The notes: generated by a model from the letters alone, not told the origin. A stretch of DNA of 37,110 nucleotides from Psammoneis japonica (GCA_008632985.1 QPGO01000184.1:124001-161110); one strand, 5' to 3'; counted from the first letter of the stretch, positions 1-36,950 are shown. Numbers and translations: made by a program.

Positions 1-914
1 TTGTTCAAACTCAGGCTCGCACTCTGTGTGACAAACACGAGACAATGCCATTTCGGACACCCAAATCCAAGCATGTGGCTCGAACGATTTTCAGCATGGA
101 CGAATCTTGAGGGACCCATCGCGACGGAGATTTTCATTCGCAATCAAAATGGGCCCCAGCCAGAAGCCGGAAATGTCAATGCTGTGCTGGGGATCAATGG
201 TTTGACCACACAATGAGAGCGACGAGCATCAGCGTGCAATTCAGCTTGACACAGAATTTGTTCATTTGCTTCAGTGGAAAACTGAACTGTCGCAACCCTT
301 CCTGAGCATGAAGCTAGAACTTGAAGGAAAAACCAGCTGCTGGGCCCTGTGCTCATCAAGATGATGACTTTGTTGCAGCAACTCAAGGATGACCACATCA
401 TAAAATGGAGTCTGCTTGCCAAATGCACAGCACCAAAAGGAAGTCTTTCCTGCAACAAAAACATGGGATGGCGTGCCCCTTTTTCTGTCCAACCGCAGTT
501 TAAAAAGCGGCTCGTCTCCTCATCATGGCGTGAGTCATGTTGGTCAATTACGACAACGGAAATGCTGGAAATGGATCTCATGCAGATCATGTGATTCATC
601 CATCGTGTGTTGGAACGTGCGTCAAAACGATGTGCTTGTTCTTGAGAGAAGATCCAACAACAAATGCTTGTTGTTGTTGCACTCGACATGGCGACACTTG
701 TCCCGGCATTGTGGGTCAGTGCCGTTGCAATGAAGTGTGGCTGCGATTGGTTTTTGTCGATGCTGCTGCCAAACGACATCTCTGGCAAGCAACAACATCG
801 TCGTCCCATCACGAGGAAGCTGCTTTGTTCTTTGTTCGACTCGACTGTACAGTGCCGGCAAATGCACCGGCAACACCATGCTGTCACGCACTGTCAGCCA
901 CTGTCACTCGCACT

Positions 915-1304
915 GATGCGTTCCAGCCCCAGGTGGGACTCCGTGTGACATTGGGCCCGTAGAATTCTACGTGCGAGCTCCACAGTGCAAGAATTTAATC
1001 AATGGATGTGTTTGTCTTCAACATCAAACAAACGGCCAAGTTTGTGGTGCAATCATGCCTCTTGCCACTCGACGTTTTTGCAACTTCGCCTGCCCTGCGC
1101 GATTCTTAAGACATTGTAGAATCGCGCTGCAACAAAAAATGTCAAAAGTTGTTGGATGGATCGCTCAATGAGTGTGCCGTAAAATGACACAAAATGTCAA
1201 AAAAATCACGTAGAAATCTGTGTGCGCGACATACGACGAGACTCAAAAAACTGTCGATGTCACAGTTCAGCAGTGCGAGGTCCCACCTGGACCTGGAGCG
1301 CATC
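915..1304. mobile_element. Non-autonomous TIR element (MITE), copy 1, 390 bp
   Basis: Terminal inverted repeats GATGCGTTCCAGCCCCAGGTGGGAC ... GTCCCACCTGGACCTGGAGCGCATC; 4-bp TSD CACT at 911-914 and 1305-1308; colinear homolog at 13319-13707. Confidence 0.85.
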
Positions 1305-3079
1305 CACTGTGACACTTCAGATGACACGCTTCCTGTTGTAAACCATGACACTGACTTTGTTTTGTCGTGTGATTGTTTTGTGCCTCCACAGATGATTGGA
1401 GTCAAGTCCCTTGACACCGGCGGCGGACTGCAAGCCGGCGAAATCAGAGAGCGCACATTCCACTGTGCAATGTCACCATTTTCGCCTTGAAAACGACCTC
1501 AAACTTGTTCGTTGAGAGTCCTTCACTCATGTGAGCGTAAAAGCTTTGGTCTGTAAGATCAGAAAAGTCCCCTTTTTTTAGACAGTCTAATCTCGTGAGA
1601 TGCCGGGAGAGCCTGTCGTCAGACAACAGACAACGCAACATGACGTCGACTGCACAGGCCCACGAATCCTTTGCCATGTGTGGAAGAATCACGCACATGA
1701 TTTGCATTGAACTTTTGGAAACATCCATCTCTGGGTGTTTTGCTTCCGGAAAAGAGCTGTCAGAACGCAAGCAACAGGCGCGACGAATGCTCGCCACTCA
1801 CCGGGAACGACTGCCCTGTCTCTTGGAATTGGCAATGCACCTCTGACCCAATGGCATCATGAAGGATGCAGCCATGAGAAGCAGGGCACTTGCAGCACCA
1901 TCAATGCCGCTCTGATGACAGCCGCACCTCATCGATTTGATCGCCATCGTGGGCACTGCAGGTGTGGGTTGCCGGGCAGGGACGGACAAGGCCGGAGAGG
2001 TTGTGATGCACAGTGCGGCATGTGTGAAGAAAGAGTCCTAAATGAAAAGCCCATCCTGCGTGAACAGACATCGTTTTACAATTGCCTCTGCTAAACAGAA
2101 AATCCGTGGGAGACGAAAAGACATGACAGGAAATGTTGAACTTTTCTGACCCACACAAACATGCCCATCGAAGCGTCAAAAAGCAACCGCGAGTTGATCG
2201 CAACACCAACATGTTTGCCGGCACAGCAGTGACCATGATGTTGGAGGTCGGTTCGGGCAATGCATTTATCCAGCCCAACATCAGCACACCGCATGGTGAA
2301 ACGGTGCCAAGACTTTCTTTTTGCCGGGATTCCTCGTGCATTCTACGTGTCTTTGTGCTGACGACTGTCCGAGCGCCTTTCGAAAGGCATCGATTCAAGC
2401 TGTCACAATTTCTTTGAAGGTACAAGCACCAAAGACATTGCACCTCCATCATCACCATGATGTCCTCTGTCCTCTTTATGAACGCCGTTGTCAATGTCAG
2501 CCACTGTGACTTGATTGCAGCTGTGATTCAACGCAAGAGCGTGAGCGATTGGCTTCGTTTTGCTCTTTGGGCCGGCTGTTGCACCTTGCCACAAGATCTC
2601 GATGTTGTTTCTATCACGATCTTCTCGACGTTTGTCTGTGGATTGTGCCAGGGGTTGTTGGGGCTCACGGAGGACTTTTTGCACATCAAGCAGCAGTGGT
2701 TTCCGAACGTCACCATCAAATCGATTTGGTCCTCCATCATCGGGGGTCTCCCTTCTGGAGCCAACTCCATTTCGTTGCCATCAAGTCCAAATCAATCTCA
2801 TTGAAGTGCATGGGACTCGTTGTTGGCATGTCCAAGGAATGTGTCAAGCGTGTCGACTTTGCGAGCGCAGCAGCCGTCTTGAAGCGCTTCGATTTGACTG
2901 CTGCGGTTGTCGTGTTTCACATCGGCATGGCTTTCAAGAATTTTGACATCAGCAGCCTCATGGGATTTCTCTTGCATCTCATGTTGGCAGTGGTGCTGGC
3001 CCATCTCATTCGCGTGCACGTTGCGGGATCATGCTTGCCATCAACCGAGGACGATCTGTCTGGCCATCGCGATGACCGT

Positions 3080-3275
3080 GTCAAGAAGCCTTGGAAGGAG
3101 CCAACGTCCAAATTCAAGAAGGGACAGTGTGCGTGTTGTCGCCATTCAAACAAGACGTGGAGGGCAAAGGTTTTAAGGGTCCATTTTGATGATGACCTTG
3201 ACCCGTTCTACGACGTGAAATTGGGCAACGGACGCGAGAAGCAGACGACCGAGGACCACCTTTCAGACGAGCTCG
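3080..3275 (+). pseudogene. Decayed fragment of a small Tudor/SH3-like domain (VHFDDDLxPFYxVKLxNGREKQT) seen in diatom proteins
   Basis: Motif recognised in ORF 2549-3385; upstream ACCRHS probably derives from AYYRHS; no intact gene context. Confidence 0.4.
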
Positions 3276-5349
3276 GCTCAGGAGGTCACTTTGAGGTTTT
3301 TATTGACATCTTTGATGACGATCCGGGTCGCGACTTGCAAGGTGTTCAATGGGGGCAAGGGGGTGTCGTCAGTGCAATCTTGTGACGATTGTTCCAACAA
3401 GATGTTCGACTGGGGAGGATTGCTGAGTGTTTTCATGCGGATGCGGCTGTGACTTGTTTTTCTGGCTCGCTTTTTCAACAAAGCAGGCCTTTGCTGTTGA
3501 CATGAGAGGTGCGACCATGGAAGTTCTTTGTGAAGGAATGGTCGATTGATCACGCTGGGTCTCAAATTCAAGCTTGCATTGGATGCATGTGTTCATCAAG
3601 CTGATTCCGAAGCATGTCTTTGTCATCGAACAACATGTGAACGAAAATGAGAGATCCATGTGGCACTCAAACTCATGCTCGTTTTATGGACATGCAAAAC
3701 GAGTTGTTTCTGAAGCGAAAATCTGAAAGAGGCGCCTTCTTGTTGAAAGCAGAGGCAAGTGGGAAAGGAAAATTGAAGCCGAGGAAACTGTTCAAGATGG
3801 AAAGGCATGGAGATGCTTTGCCATTCTAGTTCAGTCAGGCAATCTGATGTTGCTTTCATTCGATCAAGATGAGCAGAGTCTTGTACAATGCAAACATTGA
3901 ACAAACACAAAAATTTAACCAACACTTCTCCGTGTCGTTGCAAACTAGTTTCAATCGCACTTTTCGTCGTTCGTGGCACAGCTTGCACTCGCAATCAATC
4001 GATCAAAGGCAAAAGGACATCGCTGCCGGCGGACCAGTGTGGCACCCGTTTTAGACTGCAACAGTTGCGGACTTGCCTGTTGTTCAATGCAGATTGACAG
4101 CAGCCACAATCTGCTGCCAGTTGTCAAGAACAAAGACCAACCAACCATTCAGCGGCTCTTGTTGCAGTCAGGCTAAGTAGATCCATTCCACCCAGATGTC
4201 CTCTCAGATCAAAACCACAAGAAAGCAAATGCCTCAACACTCGAAACATTTCGTGTGGAAGCTGGAAAGAATGCAGCTTGATTGCGAAACTCGAGGCATC
4301 AAGAAGGACATTTTCAATGCACTTTGCACGAATCGCCTTGGAGGCGAGAATTGCAGCAGTTTCTGGTTGATCCAGCACCCAGCGAGCAAGGTCGTGGGTC
4401 TTTTCTATCACCACTTTGGTGTGCTTTATGTCTTCTCTTTTGCTGCGGCAGGACAACAGGGCGAAGATCCTTGAAAAGATGTCGCCAAGTGTGCCTCCTC
4501 CGCCTTCTGTTTTGATGCTTCCTGCGATGAGTGTGCACGGCAAATGGACTTGCTTTCATTCTGTGTCGAACATGTCCGCCATGAGGAGACGTCTCTTTCC
4601 AAAGTGCATTGGAGGGCCTCGCCCACTGATGCAGAAACACACGAATGCCACGAGTGCAAAGGGCTCACCTGCCTCAACAATGGCCGTGTTGGCTTTCCAA
4701 TCGAAAAAAGAAATCATCTCCTTCCTCTACGTTGTCGTCATGCTTCATGGCAAGTGAAAAGGCCAAGTGAATCAGATTCGAGTCTTGTCGCTGAGCCACC
4801 GTGTTGAACCGCAGTTTGCCATGCCGATGATCCGTCAACCAATGAAAGTTAGAGATGTCGAAAGATGTCAGAACTTTCTCTCGCGTTCCCATGCCAAGAG
4901 GCGCTTCGGGTCCCGCCAACTTGAGCGCTTCCTCCTTCGACTGTCAACTTCTCCTTCAATCTCCTCCACACCTTTCCCAGACGCAATGAGTCGCCCGATT
5001 TCCCCCTTGACATGATCCATTGTGACTTTTGCACTTCCCTGACACGATCAAGGCGAGCTAGAAGTGGAGCGAAAACGTCCACTTTCCCTGGCTCCTCGGC
5101 AATGGGTCGAAGAGCAAGCCCAGTTGGCCAAAGGGAGGAGACCCAATCTGCTTCTGTTGCAAACAAATCAAACCTGCTTCGACCACACTCGCTACAGAAT
5201 GCTTCCATGGTTGAAAACCTAGTGACAACATCGACCTGACCATGCTCAATGATGGCAAACATCTTGTCGCGGATCCAACCGATCAGTGCGGTTTCCATGA
5301 TTTCACTGGCATTGCGAAAATGCCACTTGCCAAAGCAGTTTGCAGGATC

Positions 5350-5940
5350 CACCGAAAACAACAATGGCGGAGCCTTCCAATGCATCAGAAGCCACATGGC
5401 AGCATCAACACATCCCGAGACGATGGATGTGTCAAGCAGGTTAAAAAAAAAACACGCTTCTTTCCGGAAATGGTTTCAAAGGCCTCCACATCAATTTCCT
5501 CCGCACTGCATCCGAGTGTTCACCCAAGATCCAGAGACAAACGTGTGTTGCGTTGCCAGAAGAACTGTCTTTGATGAAACCCAACAACTTGGGCAAGATG
5601 GATCCTCGCAGTGCGGTGCACTGTTTGACAATGGCTCTGACAAAAAGAGCAACCTGCATGGAACCATCCGCGGCCAAAAAGTCCATGAGAGCAAAAACAA
5701 CCGACTCGGCAAAATTGGGAAATCGCACAGTGCATCTGTGAACGGCCCAAATCAGAATGTTCCAGTGGGCCATGCCCTTGGCTTCCGCCATGGTAGAGTC
5801 CTGCTCTTGAGCAGTCTCGGCAACCTCGCGATTGAGCGTCGACACCAAAATCAGCAACGTCCATGGCAACATCGAGGACCTTCTCCCAAAAATCAGCGCA
5901 GGGGAACTGAGCGCGCAAAGAATGCCCATTGGCAGCTGCA
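5350..5940 (-). pseudogene. COPB1: Coatomer subunit beta (beta-COP) internal fragment, frameshifted
   Basis: Translations ILCALSSP / EKVLDVAMDV / LIWAVHRCTVRFPNFAESVVFALMDFL / VALFVRAIVKQC / VCLWILGEHS match the beta-COP adaptin-N region (HxCAVxFPxVAxSVVxxLMDFL; WILGEY), split over two frames. Confidence 0.8.
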
Positions 5941-6363
5941 AGATCTTGCAATGACGAGTCTTGAGGTCTTCCGACCGTTCAAGAACAATGAGCTTGACAA
6001 GTTTGCATGGGTGGAATGGCGGTGGGTGCCGAAAAAAGCGACACTGGAGTGCAAGCTGCCTCGCACCGGCAGGACACGGCAGTGGACGTCATTCACTCGG
6101 AAGTGTTGAGTGTTGTTGTTGCAGACGTGGCACTTTATTGCTTTGCTTGCACAGCCAATAACCTTGAAGAAGAACGCTTGTTGCTTGCGACGTGCGGGTG
6201 TTCCTTGGAACAGATGCAGCGTCATGTTTGGCGCCATGGTTTGTTGGGAATGAGATGTTATTGTGGTGGCGGCACCACTACAGTGTACTTCATCTAGCTT
6301 GTGGCCCGTCACGGACGGTGTATGTAGTGGCGGCAAACCCCAAAAGGCAAAGCGAAGTCACGG

Positions 6364-6436
6364 TCGGGCTGTCATCATGGCGAGAAGAAAATCAATCGCT
6401 GCATTCGGGCTGTCATCATGGCGAGAAGAAAATCAA
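6364..6436 (+). repeat. Two copies of a 32-bp direct repeat (41-bp period)
   Basis: TCGGGCTGTCATCATGGCGAGAAGAAAATCAA at 6364-6395 and 6405-6436. Confidence 0.9.
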
Positions 6437-6649
6437 CTTTGTTGAAATGTACCAATACAGATTCTGATATCTATATTGAAATTCCAAAATCACGTAGAAT
6501 CACGTAGAATTGTACTAAACAAAACTACTGCCGACGGACGAAGGCAGGACACCAATGCTCTCGCCCACTTACTCGCTCGTGCTCTACTACATAAGCTCGC
6601 TATCAGTTCGTTCCAGGGTGATTCTCACAGCGTATGAGCAGAAAGCGGA

Positions 6650-7666
6650 ATGCGTGTCTTGATTCACGACCATGAGCAACGCACAGCGGCAGAGCCAGCC
6701 TCCTCACCTTCGTCCTCCTCCGGTGATGATTCTTCCGTGTCATCAACCTCATCAGAGGAATCATCCTCGGCAGTCGCTAAAATTCGCAACTTGGAAGACC
6801 TTCCGTCAGACGACAGCGTTTCTCTCGACAGTAGTAGCAGCAGCGATGATGATGAAGCGAGCGAGAGTAGCAGAGGCAGTAGCAGTCAACAAGACGAAGA
6901 ATACGACAATGAAGACGACGTTGAACAACACATGACTCTGCAGGAACGACTAGAGAAACGGCGCACAGAAGGTAGTATGAAGTTAACAAAGGCTTTACAC
7001 GACAAACGTCGACGAAAAAAGGAGGCGATCGAAAAAGGACGAGAACAATTGCACAAGTCGGACAAGAACCTTGCAGAAAAGGAGACAAAAACGAAGAAGA
7101 GGTCCAAGCATGCTCCAACAGTGGCAAGCTCATTACGACGTGATTTTTATCAGCGTGGTGCGCCTCTATTGAACTCATCAGGCAATGGAGTGGAGATTGG
7201 AAGCGGAAGATACAAGGCTCGCGATCCGAGATTTAGTTCTGACGGCAACACAAAATCCACCAATCATAACTATGAATTTATGAAAGAAAAACATCTGGAA
7301 GAAATAAAGAGAGTTAAACAACGAATTGCGCTTCGAAAATTGACCGGAAGGCGGGGACAGCGACGACGTCAAGCACATCGAGCTGAATTGCAGCAAACGA
7401 CGTTGGAGCAAGACGAAGCGATTTTGCAACGATTGATTCAACAGAGAGCGACGCTACAACAGACAGAGTTGCAGCAGCAAGTTCAGAAAGTTGTTCAAGA
7501 AAATTACCACCAGCAGGGTTACTATCCGAAGCGCAACAAAGTGAAACAAATAACGACAGAGCTCAAGTATGAGCAGCTCAAGCGCAAAGGCGGGCAGAAT
7601 GCAATCAACAAGGCCTTGACAAAACGAAGGAAGAAAAACAAAAGCAAAGATGCAAAACTGTTTTGA
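6650..7666 (+). CDS. RRP36: rRNA biogenesis protein RRP36 (DUF947)
   Basis: Intact 338-aa ORF with an acidic/Ser-rich N-terminus, KKRSKHAP, ARDPRFS, NYEFM..EEI, GYYPKR and a KYEQLK...KRRKKNKSKD C-terminus typical of RRP36; normal TA and Tyr content (8 Tyr). Confidence 0.88.
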   Translation: MRVLIHDHEQRTAAEPASSPSSSSGDDSSVSSTSSEESSSAVAKIRNLEDLPSDDSVSLDSSSSSDDDEASESSRGSSSQQDEEYDNEDDVEQHMTLQERLEKRRTEGSMKLTKALHDKRRRKKEAIEKGREQLHKSDKNLAEKETKTKKRSKHAPTVASSLRRDFYQRGAPLLNSSGNGVEIGSGRYKARDPRFSSDGNTKSTNHNYEFMKEKHLEEIKRVKQRIALRKLTGRRGQRRRQAHRAELQQTTLEQDEAILQRLIQQRATLQQTELQQQVQKVVQENYHQQGYYPKRNKVKQITTELKYEQLKRKGGQNAINKALTKRRKKNKSKDAKLF

Positions 7667-8704
7667 TCGTTGTCGTGAACTAGACTTTCTATTGATCAAT
7701 GCAATGAATCTGTTTTTTCCCTCGAGTTTGTCATTCAAGGGTCGTGCAGTACTGCATCTCCTTCCTCTGATTCTTGGTGAAAAGTACAATTATACCTCTA
7801 GACCAATACAAAAAGATACTAGTTACAACACTCCTTGCTCGCCCTAAATCAAGCTAGATATTGGACTATTGACCGAACAGCTGATTTCCTCGCAATGATA
7901 TTTCCCTTAGGAAGCACCAACACGTTGAATAGCAGAAAGAGTAGTTAGTACTTTCGTCGGTTAACTCGTCATTCCACGATTTAAACACGATGATGCCATA
8001 TTTGATGTAGCGGCGTCAATTCGGATACACCACGCACGAGATCTGGTCAATGCTGTATTTATGGACTATGGACTAGGTACTGAGATTCGCTCTCGGCGTT
8101 GATTCTGATTTGGTTTTGCTTTGATATGATCTCTTGCTCAATGTTTTATTAATAGAGCCTATTCCTGTACAGTTTGGTAGAAGTGTGACGCAGGGAATCT
8201 GCCATGAAATGTCGGTCGTTTCACTGTATGATAGTCTACCGGTAGAAGTATGATGGGCCACGAAGCGAGAAAAATAGAAGCGGGCAGCGGGTATGGCGTG
8301 GGGCAGCTACAGTACTTGTACTAGCCGAAGAGGGGCTATATTAAGAAATGTCAGTAGATTAGAGCGAATAAACACGTGGAATGTGGTCTCTTACCTTATT
8401 GCGTGGCTGAAGAAAACACGAGCTAAATCGCTGTCACTTCCAAATCTCCCTCCGACCTCCACAACATCGGCTGAAAACAAACCCCCAAAACCCGCAGTTG
8501 TTCTGCAGTCCCGGTTAATTTCAGGAGAATCACACATCACATCCAGCCCAATGTTGAGTGTTGTAAAAGGTGACAACACCATCTTTGCCTCTCTCTGGCG
8601 ACACGATCGATGCGGGGGAGTTGTGTTTTTGGTGCGTTTCACACAGAAATCTGCGTGTCTGGTGCTTGATGTTGGTGCTTCCTCTCGATGGATGCCTCAA
8701 TTTT

Positions 8705-8751
8705 TGATGGAGATCCCTGCATCTAAGTGGGAATGACGTGATCCACCAAGA
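8705..8751 (-). repeat. Copia 3' LTR (47 bp)
   Basis: TGATGGAGATCCCTGCATCTAAGTGGGAATGACGTGATCCACCAAGA; directly follows the G-rich PPT-like tract AGTGTGGGGGGG (minus strand, 8763-8752). Confidence 0.8.
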
Positions 8752-8759
8752 CCCCCCCA

Positions 8760-10866
8760 CACTGGGAGAGTGCAGTGGTGTGTCGTCGCTGCCATTTGGC
8801 ACATGCTTGGTGAGCATGTCGCTGCAATTGGCTGATGCATCAATGCGATCCAGTCAAACTGAGTCGCGTTCGACCCAGTCTTGAAGAGCAAAGTGGCGAA
8901 TGTCAATGTGGCGGGTGCAGCGGGTGGGTTGGCTTGCAGCGGCCATCTTGCGGGGTGCGTCATTGTCTTCGCACACTGACGCAGCTTGCATCTGGGGGAC
9001 CGACAGTTCATCCATGACAGACTGGAGACAAAGTGCCATTTTGCCTGCATCCGATGCAGCAACAAACTCTGCTTCCGATGAAGAGGTTGATGCAGTCGGT
9101 TGCACTCTGGTCTTCCATGCGATTGCGGCTCCCGCAAGGAGAAGCGCAATGCCGGCAATCGAGCGGTGGTGTCGGATGTCAGCAGCCCAATCAGAGTCCT
9201 TGTAGCCTGTGAGTTCAGCAGGAGATGATGCCTGAGGGGGCAGCGGTGCGCGGTCATGGGGCACAGTCATCGGAGGTGGAGGAGGAACATGGGGGAGCGT
9301 CGTGTTGGGTTGTTGATGCCAGTGCACAAGGCCAAAGTCAGGGTGATGCTTGAGGTGCCGGAGAGAGTTCTTCATGCCTTCACAGTGCAGTTGTCCAGGA
9401 TTAGAGCCAAATTGGCTCAGCTTGGTGATCGAGCAGCTGAGATCCACGCGGGTGGCAACCATGGCCCACATCAATTCACCAACGGCCTTCCGACAAGAGA
9501 AACCCTGTTGTTGTTGAAGGGTTTTGGATGCCTTGGAGTCGGCCGGAGTGGGAGCCTCATCAAGGGATTTGGAGCAGGAGGCATCGCCGGGCAATGGGAT
9601 GGCGGGAGGCAGGCCGAGGTTGTCGTCAGTCAGGAAAGCATGGTTGGCCAAGATCCTCTTGATGCATGAGGCACTGTGCAACCGGATGTGGTCTTTGGTC
9701 TGTTCAACATCGTAACCCAGAAACAGGGCGAGCAAGCCCTGATGTTTGATCTCACCACCGGTGAGATGTTCACCCACAATGTCGCACATGTGTTGGCATG
9801 TTGCATCCGAGTCCGTTGCAATGGCAAAATCATCAACTTGCTGCAGAAATGGCGCCTCTTTGCCGTTCACTGCACCACTGCAGATGCATGGTTCGTGGGT
9901 GGTTGGGGTGAGATGCAGGTGTTCACGGACAATCTCATCCACACACATGCTCCACAAATGGGGAGATTCAGGGTGACCTTGGAGAGCGTGGAGCACAGGC
10001 AGTGCACAGCCCTCGGGGATGGGAGGGCAACCCAGGTGTTTGGTCCACCAGTTTTGAAAAACTTCACCCACTCTCATGTGGAAACGTTGCTTGGGAGGAG
10101 GAGCCTCAGTGAAGGCATCACTTGCATCTGTGCCACACACCCGTTTGTTCTCGAGTGCTGCCAAAGCAAAGAACAGGCGAGTGCCAGGTTGTTCAACAGA
10201 CGCGGCATGTGTCTGTGCCATTGTTTGGACAAATCCAGCTCCAGGGCTGCCATCACATGCTCCGCGGGCCTTCTTGGTTCGGGCCAGATCGTTCTTAACC
10301 AAGTGGGACCATGTCCATGGGAACACCGTGGCTCCCGGAGGGGCAGGAATGGGGTCCCCAAACATGCCTTGGCTGTTGTGCATGTCAAGCTGTTTGAATT
10401 CACCTGATTCCCAGTCCGGCCAATCTTCCTGTGTCTGGAGTTTCCGGCGTGTGAGCTTGTACAATGAAGGCAGAGCAGGGTCATGTGTGGATTCTAGCTG
10501 ATGGCGGACATGGTTGATCTGGTCCAAAAACAGTTGTGGTGATCCCGTGGTGTCCAATGTCGGTGACCGGCAGTCGTGGGCAAATCGGACAACAACGTCC
10601 TGAGCACCCGGATTGATGTCTTCCAGTGCTTGGTCGAGGTCAGCAAAGTCATGGACAGGCCAAGTGTTGACTGTGATGAGGCACGAGCATCTGAGTTTGG
10701 ATTGCCATCGTGGTGTTCTTGCCGCCTGTGATCCAGGGTGACAGTGGCGGAGTTGCAGTCCATGGCGGCGGGGGCCACAGTCAAACTCAAAACCCAATCT
10801 TGGTTTTCGAGACCCGCGGCTGGGCAACGGCACATCAAAAGAGTCGTCGCGCAGATCAAAGGACAT
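8760..10866 (-). pseudogene. Copia pol: reverse transcriptase and RNase H
   Basis: KKARGACDGS, ALQGHPES, QVDD, DSDWA, SSSEAEFVAASDAGK, HIDIRHFALQDW, then DMLTK after a stop codon; only 3 Tyr in the 670-aa ORF. Confidence 0.93.
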
Positions 10867-11021
10867 TGCAACAGCAGCGACAGGGCAGAGTCATGGCACA
10901 AACCACAAGCCGTTTGCGCGAACCATGGGAAAAGACCGGACAAGTGAACGGTCTTGATCAGTCACCGTGAGCATGCCATGTCCAGAATCCTGAAAATGTG
11001 AAGCATGGTGTTGGCTGCACT

Positions 11022-12039: not shown

Positions 12040-12049
12040 GCTGCACTTT

Positions 12050-23277: not shown

Positions 23278-23289
23278 TTCCGTCCCTTG

Positions 23290-24715: not shown

Positions 24716-24744
24716 CCAGTTCTTTGAATCGACTGTAATTACAG

Positions 24745-24906
24745 TGCAAGGTCTAACGAGATAAAGACTTTAGTGATAACAAAATTGTGAGCGTAAGACC
24801 GAGGTAACGAGGGTCGCTTTCAGCGAAGCCCGTTACAACGGCTTCCGTTATATCTAATAGATTCATTAATACTATATATCAGAAAAATAGGGTGCGAGAC
24901 ACTGCA
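24745..24906 (-). repeat. Gypsy 5' LTR (162 bp)
   Basis: Direct repeat of 19519-19682; retains TA dinucleotides lost from the other LTR. Confidence 0.95.
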
Positions 24907-28146: not shown

Positions 28147-29319
28147 TTTTGCGACCAATTCCTTTTCCTTCAACAACACAAAATGGCTGGAGTCTTTTGA
28201 AATGCGGATGCCTACAGATAGATGAGAGTTGCAGGGGAAAATGCAAGGAACGAGAATTTAGCACTGTGTAGAGAAAAATGTTTTTTGGCAACGTACACTG
28301 CACGACTGCATGCCGTAAACAGAAAAGAGGACATTTTAGGATATAATCAGATCTCTTCAAAAATGTCCAGATACATTTAATTAATTAAATGGGCATGTTT
28401 ACTGTTGGACATGTCTAACTTAAGTGTTATCAGCGAGCGACAATTGAAAACATAACTACTAGCTACTGTACCCTGCCGCACTTTCAAGACGAAACGAGAA
28501 CAGCGCGACAACATGGCCGCAAGCGCAATCATCTTTGAAACACACTTTCCTCTTGATGTCAACAGACAGACTGGGGCTGTGGCCACTTCCATTGGAATGA
28601 ATGGAGACCTGGACATTTAAAAAAAGGGGGGGACAGTGTGCAGGCGCACAGAAATGACAAAATTCCGATTGAAAAACAGCCGTCGCCACCACGCCACGGC
28701 CGTTGTGCCCGTCTCATCTGCGGCGGTCTGCAACGATGTTGTTGCTGCAGAACACATCAGAACCCCATTTCATCTGCTGTGGGCATGAAAGGCTGCTAAT
28801 CACTGTTGTGTCACCTTCTTGAGAAGGATGGAATGTCCGTTTGATGACTCATGTGCGCACCGTTTTGCGGCACAGAGCGACGGTGTGTGGTGGAGAGACG
28901 CAGCATTTGAGCATTGACGCCAATTGGCTCATCTCGGAAATGCAGCAATCTGATCAGTTGACCCATGCTGTTGGGAAATGGTGTGCAGTCTGTGCAGCTG
29001 GTGGATTTGTGGACAGTGCAGCACCCGAAGCTCCCGTCATTGTTCGTGTGAGTTGTGCTTCTTGTCGTCAATCAAAACAGCGCAAGTGCACATGTGAAAA
29101 ATTGTTGAAATCTTTTGTTGATGCTGTGGTGCCTCTGCCTGCACTGGCACAGAGAACAAGGACAAAAAATGGCTTGTTGACTTGAAGCTGCATGGCACCC
29201 AAGTTGCGCGTTTGATCCAGCCAAATGTGCTGACAGCGGTTGGAGCCTGTGCACTGCTGCACTGCCATCAATCAAGGCAGTTGCACCTTTTTCATCTGGC
29301 AATGAGGGTGCCCCTGTGT

Positions 29320-29760
29320 GCTGCTTTTGCTGGCAGCAGCTGGAGCTTTTTTGCTGCTGGGCCCCAGCAGTTGTGGCAGTGGGAGCATGTGTGCTGCCAG
29401 CGCTGGTGGTGGTGGGAGCCTGTGCCAGCACAGTGACACCACTGGCGCTGGAGGTGGTTGGATCCTTTTGCTGCTGGCACTGGTGGCAACAGGTGCCTGT
29501 GTGCTGCTGCTGTGGCACTTGCAGTGGTGGGAGCCTGTGCGGCTGCTGCCAGCACTGGTGGTGGTTGGAGCCCGTGTGCTGCTGGCAACAGGGGTGGTTG
29601 GATCCTTTTGTCCAGTGGCCGTGCCTGCCTCTGGTGCATGCTGCTGGCTTTGGTGGTGGTTGGAGCATTTCTGCTGCTGGCACTGGTGGCAGTGTGGGAG
29701 CCTGGTCACTGCTGGCACTGGTGGCCGTGAACCTGCATGGCTGCCAGCACTGGGCAAGTT
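29320..29760. repeat. Degenerate minisatellite-like tract (CTGCTGGCACTGGTGG / GGGAGCCTG motifs)
   Basis: Recurrent short motifs, no TA dinucleotides, ORFs in all frames. Confidence 0.6.
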
Positions 29761-31579
29761 GGTTGGAGCAATTGCTGAGCACCCACATGACTTCATTGTT
29801 TTTCATGTCTTGCATCTCATGCCCCACAAGCTGTGCACAAAGCAAAAATGTGCACCACGCAACTGCTGTGAAGCCACTGGTGTTCATGCACAATCAACCA
29901 TCTGGTCTGTGCAGAAAGGCAAGGCCACAGATGCTGCTGGTGGATGCAAAAGTTTCTCATGCAGAAAGAACACAAAAATCAGGGTTTGGAGTGATGCTTT
30001 CCTTGTGCTTCTGCTGGGCTTGTCTGCTTGGTCAAGGCCTCAAGGAATCCTTTTCCCCTGAAGCCATTTGTGCTTTGCATGATGACTTTTGCACAATCGA
30101 TGTGCTTCTGTTCACAAACACTTCAAAATTTGTTTTCGGAATTTTGACCAACACTCACCACGGGCCCACTGTTGCAAACATTTTCCAGTTGCCAGAGCTT
30201 TGCAGAACAGTGGACATTGTCGTGCTTGTCATCAAGAAGCAGGCACTCAAAATGTCAACCATTGTGACTAAAATCATTTCCTTGAGGCTGCTGTGGCCCA
30301 GTTTTTTGCAAAGCATGGGAAAAGCATGACAAGTGTGGAGTTCTGTGTGAATTTTAGAAATCAGCCCAAACCTTGTTTTTTGTTGGGACTCAGCACCACC
30401 TCTGCACATGGCTTGCTGGAAGAATGTTGAGATGAGACATGCATTTCTTCTCATGGGTGACTTTTTGACTGATGTGTCATTGATGTCTTTGTCTCAAATT
30501 CAGGCTGTTCAGTTTGACTCATCACAACACAAGTCTCTGTCTTGACTTGACACCAAAGTGCAAAGAACAAGTTGTGTCTCCTTGACTGCATGTTGGGACA
30601 GGTGCTTTGAAGTTTGATTTCATTGTCCTTGGCTTTGATGGCAAGTAATTCAAACAAATCAATTTTTGGCATGGACAACAGAATGCTCACATTTTGTTTG
30701 TGAGGGTGCAAGACAACTGAAAAGCCCGGGTGCACCAAATGAAGCAGGGGTTGCACAGTTTAAAGCCCAACAGCAGCCAACTGAGACAACATTGTGTTTT
30801 GCAGTGAGCTTGCTTCATTGCAAGGCAGATGACTCAATTGAGGGTGGAGACCAAGTCAGTCTTTTGCTGTCAGCCAATGCATCTGCTTGTGCCAAGCAAA
30901 TCACTTTATTGCCACACAGCCGTCAAAGTTAAAAGCCATCCCTGCAATGTTCAAAAGTTGATTCGCTCCAGCCATCTTCGCTGGTCAACACATTTTTTTG
31001 ATTCCTCTTGAGAGTGAGAGCAGTGTGCAAAAAAAAAGCATGACTCACAGCAATTTCCCTGATTTTTCTTGTGAAAAAGGAAGCAGACAACTCAAAGCAG
31101 CCAAGTGCAAGACCTTTGGCTTTGCAGCACAAGGAGCGTGCTGTTGGCTGAGTTTGGTTTTGCCATGGGATTTTTCAAAATTCCCCAGGATTGCCACCTT
31201 TTGCTGCCATTTCTGCGGGAAGCTTTGAGTTCCCAGGGAATTGCCATGAATGCCGCTTCATTGCATGTGTGCTTTGTGCACAAAAAAGATTTGTGCACCA
31301 ATGATCCCTGTGCTTCCCCTCTCACATGTTTCTGTGCATGGAGCCAGACAACTGGCCCGCCACAAACAATGGGCAGCACTCCATGGTGCACTCACACCCC
31401 ACCAGTGTGAAGGCTTTTGTCAATCAAATCATGATGCCATTCAATGTGTTTGACAATGTCAAACAAAATGTGAGAGATGAAATGTGATTGCTCATGTGAG
31501 CAATTGATTGTCAGTCGACAGCTGTTCTTTTGTCATGCTGCCACAAACACGTGAGCCACAAGACGTGTGGCAAAGGCCA

Positions 31580-31862
31580 AGGAAAAAGCAGAGCCATGCA
31601 TGGCCAATGACAACAATTCAGTGGATTGAACAATCACCCTCATTCTTCCCATTGTCACATCTTGTGTGCAGAATGAAGTGGATTGTGTGGATCACTCTTG
31701 CGTGGTGCAGTCACACCAGGTGCAAGCCATGGGGCATCCAGAGAGCAAAGGAAACAAAAAAGCAGAGCCGCCCATGGCTAACAACAACATTGTGGTGGAT
31801 TGAATGGCCATGCTTGTTCTTCCCTTTGACCTGTCCCATGTGCAGAATGCAATGGATCATTT
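31580..31862. repeat. Old tandem duplication (period about 173 bp)
   Basis: AAAAAGCAGAGCC...GTGGATTGAA...TTCTTCCC...TGTGCAGAATG at about 31583-31685 and 31756-31860. Confidence 0.7.
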
Positions 31863-32993
31863 TTCCTTCTTGTGTCATGTGGCCACAAATGCAACAAACC
31901 ACAAGGGCCTGGAGCAAAAGTGAAGGCAAAACAGAGCTGTGCACAAGCAACATCAATGTGGATGATTTTGCTTGCAAAGTTTGTTTTTTCCTTGCTCTGT
32001 GCCATGAGCGGGCACTTTGTGTTGATGAATCAGTCATGGTCATCACCCACAACCCACAGTGGCACATGGATGCATGGCATGCATGGTCAGTTGTGGGGAC
32101 AAAAACACACCTGCCCAACTGAAATTGTCGCACATTGCTGCACTCCACTCATTTTTGTTCCAGGCATTCCTTCCCACAAAATCACCCTCATTTCCCCAGC
32201 TTCACCCAAAAGGGTGAGGTGACTCCCCCTCACCCTGGCCACTTGGGGGGGGGGGGGTGGAGTCCCCAAATGTGGGTGAAACCAAGCCAAGACTGTTGGA
32301 ACATCCAGGCCACAGGAAACACAAGAAAGCCAGACACGTGGAAATGAGAAGACACTGTGGCTCATCAACTCTTTGTGGCTGAGATTTTGTCATCACCATC
32401 CTCTCTCATGTTTCAGCTCATCTCTCCCCCTTTCGAGTGAGTCACTTGGTTTGCACGAGTGGGCTGTTGGGCATTTTTGGCATCACCAGGCATCTGTCAT
32501 TTTGCAAGTTTGAAGTTTTTGTCAACAACTTCCAGGTGACCCACAGCCGCTGCTGTCCTTGTTTTCAGCAACCCCATTAAAAGAGTTGCCCAGTGTGCAA
32601 AGCTCAATGATGTGAGTTTTTGCTTTTGCTCATCAGCGCCGCAGGCTGTTTTCTGAGCTGAAAAATCAAAATCGGAAGTTTCAATGGGCAGTTGTGAGTG
32701 CAGCTGACGTCATTGGCTGTTGAAAGTTCTGGAGGATCCAAGACTTGCAATGAAAAAAGAATGAAAAACAAGTTGAGTCATGGTGTGGGCTCCAAATGCG
32801 CAAAGCATGCATTTGAGGTGTTTGCCAAAAACTCCAGCTTTGCTGGAGAAAGAGGGGTGAAGCCACATTGCATCAAAAGTGTTGCAGTTGTCAAGTGATG
32901 ATGCAGACAACAAAGTGAATGTGCAAAAAATAAATGCACAAAAAGCTCAGGCAGGCGCAAGCTGTGAGCTGCTCTGACCCCAACCTCCAGTGT

Positions 32994-33905
32994 GACTTGT
33001 TCCAGACTTAGGTGCCCTCACGCGCGAAAAAATGACCCTTTTCGCATGAAACGCGCGGTCCACACTTGCGGTACCATTTTCGATAGTAAAAACATAACAA
33101 TTTTCAAATGTGTTGTTATGGGTACATACAGAAAGGTCTTGTGCGTGTACCCATGTATTCGAAACTGTCGATGGACTCAGTTGTTAGTCCCTAAATTGTA
33201 CCGCAAGTTGAGAGCTCTGTTTTCCGAGGAGCGATTTATAGATGTCTAAATGTGTGTAGAAACGTATAAAATATTATTCTTATATATAAATTAACCCTCT
33301 AACATAACATAATTAATCTTTGGTTACAATGCGCGAATACAACTTTGATTCAACGGATCGAATAAAACATACGTTGATTTATAAGTTTCGGACGACGTGA
33401 GAAGAAGGGTAGCTCAGCCCACGCAATGGCGTCGACTTCGGACCATTTTTCACTGTTTAAGAGGCATAAACAATTGAGACACTTGAATCCGTCGAATATA
33501 TTGAGGAAGTATACATGGTAATGGCAAAGAAATGGTCCTTAGAGGCAAATTGTGAGTGAATTGAGGCTCAATTGTTGTTGCTGACAGATTTAGTATTATT
33601 GTGCCGCGCTGCAACCTGTAACAAGCATTTTCACTATTGTTGTTGATGCCATAGACTATATCAAATACGGAGGTCCTCGTCATGACATTAAATTTTCCAT
33701 AAGGCTGAAAAAAGTGGGCCGTCATGGTCACTGAAAGCCATGGCCGGTTTGGCTGTTTGTTTGTTCGAGTTTATTCTGTTTATTTTACTTATAAGCAATT
33801 AATATGATCAATATGATGAAATATGTACGATGTTGTATAAAGCATAAAAAATTTTTTTTTCTGCGAAAAGGGGCATGTGCGCGCCACCTAAGTCTGGAAC
33901 AAGCC
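32994..33905. mobile_element. Young non-autonomous TIR element, 912 bp
   Basis: Perfect 19-bp inverted repeat CTTGTTCCAGACTTAGGTG (32996-33014 / 33885-33903), subterminal CCCTTTTCGCA on both sides, 4-bp TSD GTGT (32990-32993, 33906-33909); TA-rich interior. Confidence 0.88.
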
Positions 33906-34599
33906 GTGTGCAGCTTGAGGCCCCAATGAGATGTGCTCTCCAGCCCCTCACAAGCAGGGTGCTGTGTGCACAGCATGCTCAGCAGCAAATCCATGCAAAA
34001 AAAATTGAGTTCCAAAATGAGGGCAGTTTTTGCTCTTGCATCTTGCTTTGCAAATTGCTCATGCCAATGATGATGGTGGCTGCCTTGCTCTGCTGTGCCA
34101 TTGGCTCACCCATTCTGTGAGGCCAGTGGCTGCCATGACAAGCTGAAAGGCAAGGGTGTTGGCAACATTGAGGCAGATCAACAAGACTGTGCTCCAAATG
34201 ATGGCATGGTCACAATGTTGATTTCTGATGTTTGTGATGTGCTCCAGCCCCAGGCCAGGCAGGCTTCATTGGGGCAGTGAACACGCAGGTGATTGCCAAC
34301 AGAAAAAGTGGCAATTCATTTTGTGAGTGTGTGGCTCCTCCACACTTGAGGCATGTCATTTCTGGCTTGCCTGTTTGCGTTTTTCAGATGCTGAAGAGTT
34401 TTGCAGAAGCTTGCACGTGGGGAAGCACACAATGTGTGCAAGTCATTTGTTGTGTCTTGTTGACAGCTTTTTGACCCATGGTGTTTTTTGTGCCTCTTTT
34501 TCTCTTCTCCTCAGACTGCAAAGTTGGGCTTTCATCAATGCTGCTCTGTCAACTTGGCGCCAGATGCAAACAACTGTGCACAACATCTTTGTGGTGCAC

Positions 34600-35290
34600 T
34601 GGTGTGGGTGATTTTTGAAAGGCATCACTTGCACTCTGAGTCATCATGGAAAACACTTTTGGGCCATGCAAAAATGCCAGGTTTTGGCACTGACACAAAA
34701 AAGTCATTCCGCACTCAGTTTTGTGGCTGCGTGAGGGCTGAGAAGCTTGTGTGCAAGTCCCAGAAACTGGAAAAGATGGACAAGAACACAGCTGAGTGTG
34801 CAAGCATGAAAGAACCAAAGGAGTGGGTGCATGACACCATTGTTGAGTTGGGGTGACAGGCAGACAGATGCGCAGAAAACACAATGGAGATCAGCACAAG
34901 CACAACACAAAAATGTTTGGGCTGCAGATGCATGCACTGGTGTCTTTGAGGCAGGAGAGCATGCCAGGAGAGCCAGACTGTCCATCGGGAGACACCATGT
35001 CTGAGAAGGACAAGGCAATCTGGGGCAAGAAATGCTGCCATTGTGTGAAGAAGAGTGCAATCTACAAGACACAGAAGGAAAAGGCACCCAGTGCAATTGT
35101 GGGGCAATGTGCAAAGGCTGTTTGCCACAAGCTTGAAAAGGAGTGGTGGAGTTTGTGGCGGTTGCAAAGGAGCTGGACATCTGGCACTGCTGAGTGCTCT
35201 CAAGTTGATCTTGTTTGGTGCAAATGAGAAGACAAACCCACATTGGACAACTGCATTGAAGAACAAGAGAAAGAAGCAATGTCTCTGTGT
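34600..35290 (+). pseudogene. Heavily decayed retrotransposon gag-like fragment
   Basis: IWGKK[C][C]H...KEKAPSAIVGQCAKAVCHKLEK then LALLSALKLILFG resembles the diatom Copia gag motif IxGQC...KLE...LLxxIK. Confidence 0.5.
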
Positions 35291-36950
35291 TGTTTGCAAA
35301 CAACCCATTCTCACATCTCAACATTGCATTTCTGTCTGACTCAAGAATGGCGTTTTGCTGCTGGCTCAAACATGTTTTCTGAAGACACACTTTGGCCATT
35401 CCACACCTCCATTTGAGGCCAACAAGCAGCACAACCCAACGCTCCTCATCAGTGTTGGCTGCCATGCAATGAATCATTAAGCCTGAACCATTTTGAGTGA
35501 AAACAGAGGATGACGGACAAAGCAACCACTGGGGATGGGATGAAAAGGCTGGAGGACCAAGTGTGCATGAGGTCACAATGTTGATTCTGGCATGATGAAC
35601 AGCTGAATCTGCTCTCCAGAGACAAGTTTCTCAGTCCATTGCACCTCACTCAAGCAAAACAAATTCACTGCTTTGCGGAGAGTTCAGCCTCTCAGCTGCA
35701 ACAGGCACCCAAAAGCAGAATCCATGAAGTTCAATGCAGCAGCAGTGACCTCATGGACTCCACTGTGCTTTGCAAAAAGTGCACCCACAATGTTGCTTTC
35801 TTGGTGACATTGCCAGGTTTTCCTTGGAACGACCACTCTGATGGGACAAGGATTGCTGTGAGGTTCTTGCTTGTTTCTTTTAGCCCACCCCAAGAAAGTC
35901 ACCCACACCAAAAGCTCTGACACAACCTTGTCATCAGGCAGTGAAACAGAGCTTGTCATCTGGCAGCAAAACTCTTTTGAGAAGAAACACACAAATCCAA
36001 CCTTCCCTTTGGCATGTGCAGTGGGCAACAGCCAATCAAAATGCTCAAGGTGACAGCCTCGTTTTCCCTTGAAGCTCATGGCAAATGAACAAGTGCACTG
36101 TCAACCACTGACCTGAACATCATGCAGCAACTTCACTTTTTACTCTGGCTGCACATGGCGGTGCAAAAATGTTGTTCTGAAGTGAGATGCCATCCCACAT
36201 TTCGAAATGCAGTCATGTGCCAATCTTCATCGGAAGTGGGGATTTCTTGAATTCCTCGGAGCCTTCCTGGGGACAGGTTCGGTTGTCTTTGTGGCACCTT
36301 TGCATTGTTGACATTTCTCTTGGAAGGACCATGCTGATGGGACAAGGACCATGCATGAGGTTCTTTGCTTTCTTCTTCGGCTTCCAGCAATTCAGCTGGC
36401 ACCAAAGCGTGTGTTGCAACATCTCCCAAAGTCCTCCGAACTTGAAAATTGTGAAAGTTGCCTAGTCGGCAAGATGCAATCAACACCACAGTCTCGTTGG
36501 TGGCAAAAACAGTGTGGTTGAGCAATGCCAAGCACATGATGCATCAATGTGTGTCAAATGCAAGATGATGTGGCAGTTCAAAGTGCGTCAAAGATTTTTT
36601 ATGAGTGTGATGGGCCATTTTCGCATCCCACGTTTGTGGCCAATTTGTGGATCTCAAGATTCAAATTTGGTGCAGGCAAGCACATTGTGCATGCAAAGCA
36701 AGGTGTCAAGAGCATTGAAACAGCTTCATTGTTGTTGCAGAGACTGCTTTGTGTGGCGGGATCGACGCTATCGTCTCTGTTGTCATTTGCCAAAATGGCA
36801 CGTTGTCATCTGTCTGTGGCATGTTTCGCCTGCCTCAATTGAGGTAGATTTCACCACCTCAATTGAGGAAAGAACCCGGTGGACTCTAGTGGACACTGCC
36901 AGAGACACTCTCTAGAGAGCAGCTGGCAGTGGCAGCCATCTAGAAATGGC

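Follow-up and report, generated by a model that had tools for sequence, protein, structure and literature searches.

The closest described counterpart of the pattern reported here comes from the chlorarachniophyte Bigelowiella natans, a rhizarian, in which integrated NCLDV and virophage DNA is reported to undergo hypermutation restricted to TpA (Mettrop et al., bioRxiv 10.64898/2026.01.13.699255). According to that preprint, A->G or T->C transitions at TpA accounted for 230 of the 231 de novo changes found in integrated viral DNA, and the directly measured de novo rate was about 1000-fold over background; reverse transcriptase and DDE domains are over-represented in the TpA-depleted coding sequences of this alga, the process is apparently not constitutive, and an ADAT2-like deaminase is proposed as a candidate. 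The present case also resembles ascomycete RIP, in that dinucleotide-specific transitions disable repeats after integration while genes are spared and edges are leaky or spared.

The DNA analysed is a single stretch of 37,110 nucleotides from Psammoneis japonica (GCA_008632985.1 QPGO01000184.1:124001-161110), referred to below as the window, and the evidence consists of fixed sequence differences within it. We read the window as nuclear DNA of a stramenopile alga, most likely a diatom, and consider it likely that its repeat DNA has been subject, in its silenced state, to a post-integration, DNA-level and strand-symmetric process of transition specific for TpA. Literature searches found no description of TpA hypermutation in diatoms.

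Distribution of TpA across the window

TpA is nearly absent from five blocks of the window that together span 29,776 bp: 143 remain where base composition predicts 1785.4, or about 1225 if the prediction is scaled to the o/e of TA-normal DNA. The four intervening TA-normal patches contain 349 against 509 expected (o/e 0.68). This recount upholds a preliminary description of the same DNA, and the edges fall within about 50 bases of those given there. The blocks, the patches and the features within them are as follows, with strand given where a feature has one.

1-6250: TA-depleted block (48 TA, o/e 0.12; CpG o/e 0.81)
5504-6092, minus strand: coatomer subunit beta pseudogene fragment, residues ~260-467 of ~950 (Pfam Adaptin_N, E 9.5e-12; PDB coatomer beta, E 7e-12)
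6251-8430: TA-normal island (o/e 0.68), containing RRP36
6650-7666, plus strand: RRP36 gene
8431-19518: TA-depleted block (39 TA, o/e 0.07; CpG o/e 0.66)
8665-10923, minus strand: Copia-type polymerase remnant (ORF 8854-10866), from homologue comparison
10451-12451 and 13119-13785: very high-copy short repeats, from read depth
19683-24680, minus strand: Gypsy interior, as TA-depleted block (38 TA, o/e 0.12; CpG o/e 0.90)
24907-28480: TA-normal patch (o/e 0.64, computed over 24681-28480)
28481-32990: TA-depleted block, unclassified (11 TA, o/e 0.04; CpG o/e 0.26)
32991-33900: TA-normal patch (TA o/e 0.82), filled exactly by the TIR element
32996-33903: TIR element of 908 bp, with 19-bp inverted ends at 32996-33014 and 33885-33903
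33904-36830: TA-depleted block (7 TA, o/e 0.03; CpG o/e 0.21)
36831-37110: fourth TA-normal patch (o/e 0.72)

The edges are sharp, with dense runs of TA beginning or ending at 6259, 8424, 24682, 28469, 33009, 33889 and 36845, and at borders with TA-normal DNA the depletion gives out within 100-200 bp. Within the blocks 88-97% of the expected TA is gone, and among dinucleotides containing A or T it is TA alone that is depleted (AA and TT o/e 1.1-1.4, AT 0.8-1.0). TG and CA are raised in every block (o/e 1.28-1.84 and 1.45-1.87, respectively), and their gain is balanced by the combined loss of TA and CG, since these losses predict a strand-symmetrised TG gain of 27 per 1000 trinucleotides and 30 is measured. 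RIP proceeds the other way: C->T changes, mainly at CpA, create TpA and leave an excess of TpA with a deficit of CpA and TpG, whereas here TpA is destroyed and CpA and TpG are created (overall TA o/e 0.08, TG 1.57, CA 1.65). The loss also has a wider context, ATA/TAT being preferred about fourfold over TTA/TAA, for which we know of no counterpart among the TadA/ADAT2-ADAT3 deaminases.

Recognisable TE coding sequence makes up about 6.5 kb of the 29.8 kb of depleted DNA. When repeat status was measured by read depth over 8450-24457, the block beginning at 8431 proved to be repeated DNA, with summed depth of 147 to 65457 compared with about 30 for exact single-copy contigs. When ORFs of the first block were scanned against Pfam, Adaptin_N was the sole family matched, the rest of the block being unclassified. 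This match marks the coatomer-beta fragment, and tblastn with 6 of 150 coatomer-beta homologues found no further piece of it in the window. Aligned to P0301, the fragment has all three Tyr residues of the printed alignment changed (to H, C and H), together with Arg->Trp changes; the TpA process is thus not TE-specific.

The TIR element has 8-bp flanks alike at six of eight positions and a CpG o/e of 1.21 that is, like its TA, normal. It lies within a block at o/e 0.03-0.04, the depleted DNA on its right being the continuation of that on its left, so the depletion is historical rather than regional. The element entered a block that was depleted beforehand, and the TpA process has no visible current action at this spot. 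The idea that hypermutation is restricted to repeats meets a mixed picture in this one window: the TE blocks are depleted, read depth shows 8450-24457 to be multi-copy and TA is normal in the RRP36 island, but a host-gene fragment is mutated, and the TIR element and the 5' LTR of Gypsy are not. Two stretches previously called gene islands are both TA-normal; the first, 6251-8430, contains RRP36, and the second contains, within 24907-28480, predicted ORFs without a family match, one of them repeat-rich and of low complexity.

Direction, strand and timing of the changes

The Gypsy element, which is a single insertion, is composed as follows.

19514-19518 (left) and 24907-24911 (right): 5-bp target-site duplication TCTCG, bounding the insertion
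19519-19682, minus strand: 3' LTR, with about half of its TA mutated (8 remain; its partner has 17)
19683-19694, minus-strand reading: polypurine tract, abutting the 3' LTR
19886-20764, minus strand: integrase, in the interior
21295-22881, minus strand: RT-RNase H, in the interior
23935-24552, minus strand: gag, in the interior
24681-24906, minus strand: leader and 5' LTR (LTR 24745-24906), unmutated, with 17 TA in the LTR, adjoining the TA-normal patch

Ten columns differ between the two LTRs, of which eight are TA opposite TG or CA, one is CG opposite TG and one is a transversion. Because the LTRs of one insertion bounded by its target-site duplication differ at eight TA sites, the changes arose after integration. 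The left LTR also serves as a proxy for the rate: besides its eight differences at TA sites, only one of its 10 CpG sites differs from the partner (counted by hand), and the TpA process outpaces CpG decay here. Gene conversion by an intact copy, and not a chromatin border, may be what left the 5' LTR unmutated. A contig in which 24689 is joined to the start of an LTR points to about 55 extra bases near that position in the window's copy.

The direction of change is read from conserved tyrosines. Comparison of the Gypsy RT-RNase H with 59 of 120 listed homologues gave 18 conserved Tyr columns, now 12 Cys, four His and two retained, while other conserved columns were kept in 224 of 291 cases (Fisher p 2e-8 for the excess of Tyr loss). 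In the Copia polymerase, compared with 60 of 120 homologues, 14 such columns have become six His, six Cys and one Trp, with one kept (p 2e-6). For the two polymerases pooled, Tyr has become Cys or His in 28 of 32 columns (18 Y->C and 10 Y->H), so that both products, TpG and CpA, are present, as in B. natans; there may be a mild strand bias, as Y->C exceeds Y->H by 12 to 4 in Gypsy (p 0.08) but the two are equal, at six each, in Copia. TpA specificity is also seen outside Tyr: T precedes nine of 14 A->G changes at codon position 1, but only six of 76 codons in which a first-position A is retained (odds ratio 21, p 1e-5). Nine peptide motifs reported earlier from these ORFs, and Tyr counts of 2/528, 3/670, 1/753 and, for RRP36, 8/338, were all found as described, and the same replacement of Tyr by Cys or His is seen in database proteins from other sources. 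A search for homologues of the 753-aa ORF detected none, and it may simply be a reading frame that opened as TAA and TAG stops were lost.

TA-poverty is not intrinsic to this Gypsy family, since its relatives have normal TA and Tyr: all 78 related loci from metagenomes have a TA o/e of 0.45-1.08, none near 0.12, and among the matches listed outside the window 117 of 119 have a Tyr content of 2.7-5.2%, compared with 0.38% here. At position 20300 the window has TG, where all placed contigs of other copies have TA. Two copies of a short repeat show 11 dinucleotide sites where one copy has TG and its counterpart CA, and neighbouring TG and CA labels agree at a fraction of 0.496, against 0.50 expected, without strand coordination; the process has thus acted independently on each copy and strand. 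The earlier proposal of a TpA->TpG/CpA process on both strands, running opposite to RIP, is supported by the Tyr columns, the LTR pair, codon position 1, the TG/CA repeat copies and the TA-normal Gypsy relatives.

CpG decay of the 5mC type is a second, separate process in these blocks. The older depleted ones have a CpG o/e of 0.21-0.66 (0.21-0.26 over 28481-36830), 14 of 24 conserved Arg columns in Copia have been altered, most of them to H, Q or C, and contigs of other copies have CG at sites where the window has TG or CA. Deamination of 5mC also feeds TpG and CpA in methylated transposons, but it is incapable of removing TpA, and in the young Gypsy element CpG stands at 0.90 beside TA at 0.12, in agreement with the prior view that CpG decay does not explain the TA loss.

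A proposed process and its rivals

In the process we propose, the targets include Gypsy and Copia LTR retrotransposons, unclassified repeats and a stray coatomer-beta fragment in nuclear DNA. The change at the TpA step is one A:T->G:C transition, on either strand independently, giving TpG or CpA, and it goes near to saturation, destroying Tyr codons and TAA and TAG stops. The agent would presumably be an enzyme that follows silenced chromatin and not the exact ends of elements, and it might serve in genome defence. The likeliest candidate belongs to the TadA/ADAT2 lineage of polynucleotide adenine deaminases. The natural substrate of these enzymes is A34, which is always preceded by U33, and this would explain the TpA rule. 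DNA editing has been reported for amphioxus BjADAT2, as has DNA activity of some members of the TadA/ADAT2-ADAT3 group (cited in bioRxiv 10.64898/2026.01.13.699255).

A rather unlikely alternative is that the modified base is thymine: within silenced DNA a TET/JBP-type dioxygenase would oxidise the T of the TpA step, and the resulting 5-hydroxymethyl- or 5-formyluracil would sometimes pair with G, so that T->C change yields the same TG and CA. 5-Formyluracil does mispair with G, and at the palindromic TpA step T->C and opposite-strand A->G are inseparable from sequence, a caveat that applies to the earlier wording, 'A to G in TpA'. A dinoflagellate TET/JBP homologue is reported to make 5hmU, a base found enriched in repeats and associated with the silencing of TEs (PMC11572971), and work from the 1980s is described as finding 5hmU preferentially in place of T in TA and TC in Crypthecodinium cohnii (PMC11071213). 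However, a base-resolution map in Breviolum is described in the latter source as without sequence preference; there is no TpC effect in the window (TC o/e 0.83-1.28), and 5hmU:A pairs are mostly faithful. The dinoflagellate system is alike as a pyrimidine modification of repeat DNA tied to TE silencing in another SAR lineage, with its old reports of TA/TC preference (PMC11572971, PMC11071213), but it is a reversible mark and is not known to bring about T->C change on a mass scale.

It is improbable that the changes arose in RNA, through A-to-I editing of transcripts from retrotransposons (by an ADAR-like enzyme, or by an ADAT2/3-like one such as edits fungal mRNA), and were fixed by reverse transcription and reintegration. 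Both identified elements are retrotransposons, the Gypsy excess of Y->C is of sense-strand A->G, and polynucleotide adenosine deaminases favour U before the edited A, ADAR also disfavouring G (bioRxiv 10.64898/2026.01.13.699255). But reverse transcription yields identical LTRs, which these are not; both strands are mutated, with sense-strand T->C in 10 of the 28 Tyr changes; and strand coordination is absent. Furthermore, non-coding repeats and the gene fragment are equally mutated, a copy with its RT tyrosines destroyed is an unlikely source of new copies, and other copies retain TA at 20300.

It is very improbable that there is no dedicated mutator, and that the pattern comes instead from the elements' own composition, from selection against UpA/TA (as nuclease sites, stops, TATA or poly(A) signals) or from GC-biased gene conversion. 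A mild TA shortage is general (0.64-0.82 in the normal patches, 0.45-1.08 in the related loci), and repeats do recombine, but selection would not swap conserved polymerase Tyr for Cys or His; GC-biased conversion lifts G+C in every context, yet AA and TT are over-represented here and TA alone is lost; and nearly all differences between the LTRs of one insertion are at TA. None of the 78 related Gypsy loci approaches 0.12, and this explanation is largely refuted.

The TA-poor state is present in accurate raw-read contigs: k-mer contigs from public DNA run X1 match 12016-12356, 14403-15016 and 15116-15495 with 0 differences at a depth of about 30, although X1 may be the sample behind the assembly and is hence a check on the assembly and not on the biology. 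Base modifications do cause systematic long-read consensus errors in some data, but it is scarcely credible that a modified base in heterochromatin was miscalled as G or C, or that polishing introduced the changes, given these contigs, the single clean product at each site where misreading per strand would give conflicting TG and CA reads, the normal reading of the TIR element within a depleted block, and the like Tyr changes in proteins from other sources.

Comparison with known systems

Hypermutation by ADAR and APOBEC3 in animals is similarly recorded in integrated retroelement copies and is driven by deaminases, but these enzymes act before integration, on RNA or minus-strand cDNA, and leave strand-coordinated clusters, whereas the changes here are post-integration, symmetric and uncoordinated, as the eight TA differences between LTRs and the 0.496 agreement of neighbours attest. 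To our knowledge, ADAR is confined to animals. RIP requires duplication and a premeiotic stage; the diatom DNMT4 is related to RID, its function being described as unknown (PMC9998398).

The process is most simply regarded as of the same kind as the TpA-only hypermutation of B. natans, which, as reported, likewise converts TpA to TpG or CpA only, on both strands, leaving clusters poor in TpA and rich in CpA and TpG. The two cases differ, as far as the preprint's account goes, in four respects. Mutations were observed directly in mutation-accumulation lines of B. natans, whereas here they are known from the fossil record alone; the targets there are mainly giant-virus and virophage insertions, and here LTR retrotransposons along with other repeats and a fragment of a gene; TpA loss is modest there (Rho 0.45 for the NCLDV region) and near saturation here (o/e 0.03-0.12); and the hosts are a rhizarian and a stramenopile, whose machineries may not be homologous. 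The pattern in the window looks like that TpA-specific hypermutation, published in 2026 for one alga, and would place it in a second major lineage.

Composition of the TpA-depleted blocks

The dinucleotide composition of the window is a mosaic, in which five blocks totalling 29,776 bp contain only 143 TpA where base composition predicts 1785 (observed/expected, o/e, 0.08), while the four intervening patches (7,170 bp) contain 349 against 509 (o/e 0.68). At the o/e of the patches, about 1225 TpA would be expected in the depleted blocks. The block-wise loss of TpA noted in the preliminary description is thus confirmed, and its coordinates, peptide motifs and tyrosine counts were all reproduced on recount.

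TpA-depleted blocks
1-6250: TpA o/e 0.12
8431-19518: TpA o/e 0.07
19683-24680: TpA o/e 0.12
28481-32990: TpA o/e 0.04
33901-36830: TpA o/e 0.03

The block borders are sharp, to within 100-200 bp. TA is the sole dinucleotide containing A or T that is depleted in the blocks, where TG (1.57) and CA (1.65) are over-represented; the strand-symmetrised gain of TG amounts to 30 per 1000 trinucleotides, and 27 are predicted if all the lost TA and CG had become TG or CA. CpG o/e lies between 0.21 and 0.26 in 28481-36830 and falls as low as 0.11 in 500-bp bins, which suggests long-standing cytosine methylation there, added to the loss of TA.

Assembly error was considered by reference to run X1, a public DNA sequencing run whose k-mer contigs were compared with the window. 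The preliminary description had pointed to raw reads as a check, and the TA-poor sequence is indeed present in these contigs, at a depth of 29-32 and without a single difference, over 12016-12356, 14403-15016 and 15116-15495; since run X1 may be the window's own source, this match vouches for the assembly but not for the biology. Had a modified base been misread on both strands, conflicting products would have resulted in place of a single clean one.

Because TAA and TAG are nearly absent from the depleted blocks, very long open reading frames (ORFs) run through them in several frames, and the window as a whole has 109 stop-to-stop frames of at least 110 codons. Such spurious ORFs and their tyrosine-less 'proteins' contaminate gene catalogues. 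The frame of 753/789 codons at 17084-19450 (minus strand), for which no homologue was found in Pfam, the PDB or stored proteins, may not be a gene. The identifiable features are as follows.

Features of the window
6650-7666, plus strand: RRP36, whose protein has named matches in diatoms at no more than 39% identity
5504-6092, minus strand: fragment of coatomer subunit beta, about 190 codons, 44% identical to its best homologue
8665-10923, minus strand: Copia polymerase remnant
19519-24906, minus strand: Gypsy element with long terminal repeats (LTRs) of 164 and 162 bp and a 5-bp target duplication, TCTCG
32996-33903: non-autonomous terminal inverted repeat (TIR) element of 908 bp with 19-bp inverted ends

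The Gypsy element encodes gag, RT-RNase H and integrase, and a polypurine tract adjoins its 3' LTR; named diatom relatives were found for the transposon proteins of the window. Together with the RRP36 matches, these relatives indicate a stramenopile, most likely a diatom that lacks close kin in the database. Depleted DNA outside the Gypsy element, the Copia remnant and the coatomer fragment is without recognisable coding content: Pfam scans of 13, 67 and 34 ORFs gave nothing significant in 28481-36830 and Adaptin_N alone in 1-6250. A PDB sequence search gave zero matches for the ORF at 26053-27165 (plus strand) and low-complexity matches alone for that at 27062-28384 (minus strand), which contains tandem repeats of 36, 48 and 96 bp at 27381-27694. 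A 22-bp repeat is present in 3.1 copies at the end of the window (36963-37031), and no tRNA gene or Rfam family was found in the window.

Across 8450-24457 the summed contig depths in run X1 range from 147 to 65,457, where exact single-copy contigs have about 30, so that this stretch must be repeated in the genome; contig depth puts the Gypsy copy number at roughly 70-110. Among the shorter repeats, that at 13318-13703 has a 79%-identical second copy at 914-1300 and, from read depth, about 2000 genomic copies, and a repeat present as a local triplication at 11029-12044 has, by the same measure, about 800; TA depletion in these repeats is somewhat milder than in their surroundings (o/e about 0.1-0.3).

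Direction and dinucleotide specificity

The direction of change can be read from protein columns conserved among homologues. At 18 conserved tyrosine columns of the Gypsy RT-RNase H (59 of 120 listed homologues), the window has cysteine at 12 and histidine at four, and keeps tyrosine at two, while the residue is retained at 224 of the 291 remaining conserved columns (p 2e-8 for the contrast). The Copia remnant, compared with 60 of 120 homologues, has six histidines, six cysteines and one tryptophan at 14 such columns and keeps a single tyrosine (p 2e-6). Tyrosine makes up 0.38% of the window's Gypsy protein as against 2.7-5.2% in 117 of the 119 listed homologues from elsewhere. Where A has become G at the first codon position (I>V, M>V, T>A, N>D), T precedes it in 9 of 14 cases, compared with 6 of 76 retained A-first codons (p 1e-5), so that the rule is one of TpA and not of tyrosine codons per se.

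Comparison of repeat copies at the DNA level gives the same picture. Ten columns differ between the two Gypsy LTRs, eight of them TA/TG or TA/CA, one CG/TG and one a transversion, and the right LTR retains 17 TA to the left LTR's eight. In a short repeat of high copy number, 11 dinucleotide sites read TG in one of two copies compared and CA in its partner, which is the mark expected where an ancestral TA has been struck independently on different strands, and double TG/CA changes of the same kind are found in run X1 contigs derived from other copies (differences from the window being listed for 40 of about 1140 places). The preliminary description had interpreted the deficit as hypermutation of TpA to TpG/CpA confined to repeats, the reverse of fungal RIP; the tyrosine columns, the LTR differences and the T-preceded A-to-G changes all support the core of that interpretation. 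At a palindromic TpA, A-to-G and T-to-C changes are not distinguishable from sequence.

Related Gypsy loci in metagenomes have a TA o/e of 0.45-1.08 in 78 of 78 cases, drawn from the best 80 of 467. That no TA-depleted relative appeared among them says little about rarity, since copies that are mutated receive lower scores and the loci retained were confined to the best 80.

The coatomer fragment, the only piece of that gene in the window, also lies within a depleted block. In the printed alignment to its best homologue all three tyrosines have been replaced (by His, Cys and His), and it carries Arg-to-Trp changes as well. It may have been captured, retrocopied or segmentally duplicated.

Timing, strands and targeting

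Reverse transcription makes both LTRs of a new insertion identical, and the LTR differences must therefore have arisen in DNA, after integration. At position 20300 the window's copy has TG, and every contig compared from other copies has TA. Overall, 18 Tyr-to-Cys and 10 Tyr-to-His changes (p 0.18) show that both strands are affected, and the labels of neighbouring TG/CA sites are uncoordinated (0.496 against 0.50). These two observations argue against processive bursts on a single strand, and against an edited intermediate in the form of single-stranded RNA or cDNA.

Two processes feed the pool of TG and CA. CpG o/e is still 0.90 in the Gypsy interior, where TA has fallen to 0.12, while older blocks are low in both (CpG 0.21-0.66), and the Copia remnant contains Arg-to-His, Gln and Cys changes. 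Loss of TpA is thus faster than loss of CpG, and the pattern is that of ordinary decay of 5-methylcytosine together with a faster process acting on TpA. The latter has an approximately fourfold context effect: survival relative to the normal patches is 0.04 for ATA/TAT, 0.08 for GTA/TAC, 0.10 for CTA/TAG and 0.18 for TTA/TAA. ATAT occurs 26 times in the patches and not once in the depleted blocks, in which TTAA is the commonest survivor.

The 5' LTR and leader of the Gypsy element (24681-24906), which adjoin TA-normal DNA, are unmutated, and the 3' LTR, which adjoins older repeats, is half mutated, so that the edge of mutation does not track the ends of the element. The TIR element, normal in both TA and CpG, is an insertion into the oldest of the depleted blocks; it lies inside the most depleted sequence and exactly fills a TA-normal 'island'. 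The 8-bp sequences on its two sides, CAGTGTGA and CCGTGTGC, match at 6 of 8 positions and may represent a hAT-like target duplication. It follows that the deficit reflects the history of each sequence and not a regional constraint, and that the TpA process is not visibly acting on this insertion.

Two further observations concern the Gypsy locus. One run X1 contig (depth 104, its shorter side just 28 letters) runs directly from 19511 to 24907, the two flanks being separated by a single copy of the target duplication as at an empty insertion site; the insertion could be hemizygous or polymorphic, or the flank could be repeated elsewhere. A contig from other Gypsy copies passes from 24689 through 'CA' directly to the start of the LTR, and the window's copy seems to have about 55 extra TA-normal bases (24690-24744) between its interior and the 5' LTR.

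Candidate agents and comparison with known systems

The natural target of the TadA/ADAT2 enzymes, A34, follows U33. For this reason, and because activity on DNA is reported for some members of the family (in work cited by Mettrop et al., bioRxiv 10.64898/2026.01.13.699255), an adenine deaminase of the TadA/ADAT2 lineage is the favoured candidate agent. A real alternative is that thymine is oxidised by a TET/JBP enzyme: an enzyme of this type in dinoflagellates is described as making 5hmU, which is enriched at repeats (PMC11572971), and a preference of 5hmU for TA/TC appears in old reports, although the same source describes a newer map in which that preference is absent (PMC11071213). The TpA process may be guided by silenced chromatin and may serve genome defence. 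The enzyme and its targeting rule could be approached through the sharpness of the borders, the half-mutated pair of LTRs and the greater sensitivity of ATA/TAT than of TTA/TAA; a DNA adenine deaminase that naturally obeys a TpA rule would also be of interest for base editing.

There are hints that the process is widespread. Three homologous Gypsy polymerases in the database, P0079, P0177 and P0172, come from other Gypsy families (44-50% identical to each other; JGI, NCBI and ENA sources) and have Cys or His at 15 of 20, 17 of 19 and 5 of 11 conserved tyrosine columns, respectively. Their choices between Cys and His differ from those of the window and among themselves, and the changes are independent of the window's.

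No description of TpA hypermutation in diatoms was found in the literature searched, most subscription journals being outside its coverage, and neither 'TpA' nor 'hypermut' occurs in the first paper on diatom mutation rates (on P. tricornutum). Fungal RIP runs in the opposite direction to the window's change of TA to TG/CA; a diatom methyltransferase, DNMT4, is described as related to fungal RID (PMC9998398). Only one paper was found that describes hypermutation of foreign DNA specific to TpA, the 2026 preprint on the rhizarian alga B. natans (10.64898/2026.01.13.699255), which is the closest match to the window's signature. That preprint reports 231 de novo mutations from two integrated viral regions, 230 of them A-to-G or T-to-C, all at TpA, with a rate of about 6e-7 per site per generation in some lines only; coding sequences depleted in TpA show an enrichment of reverse transcriptase and DDE domains, and the agent proposed is an ADAT2-like deaminase. 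The process in the window is most simply of this kind. A saturated signature in the retrotransposons of a probable diatom would extend TpA hypermutation to major marine primary producers, and would suggest that RIP-like genome defence is widespread in the SAR supergroup. It is possible, if somewhat doubtful, that diatoms and chlorarachniophytes share one ancient, chromatin-guided TpA-editing defence, in which a TadA/ADAT2-lineage deaminase has been redirected to silenced foreign DNA as a SAR-wide mirror image of RIP; such a defence would act fast, the Gypsy element having lost about 89% of its conserved tyrosine codons while its LTRs differ at only two non-TA positions. The TpA signature itself is the same as that described for B. 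natans, from which the window differs in its stramenopile host, its retrotransposon targets and its near-saturated depletion.
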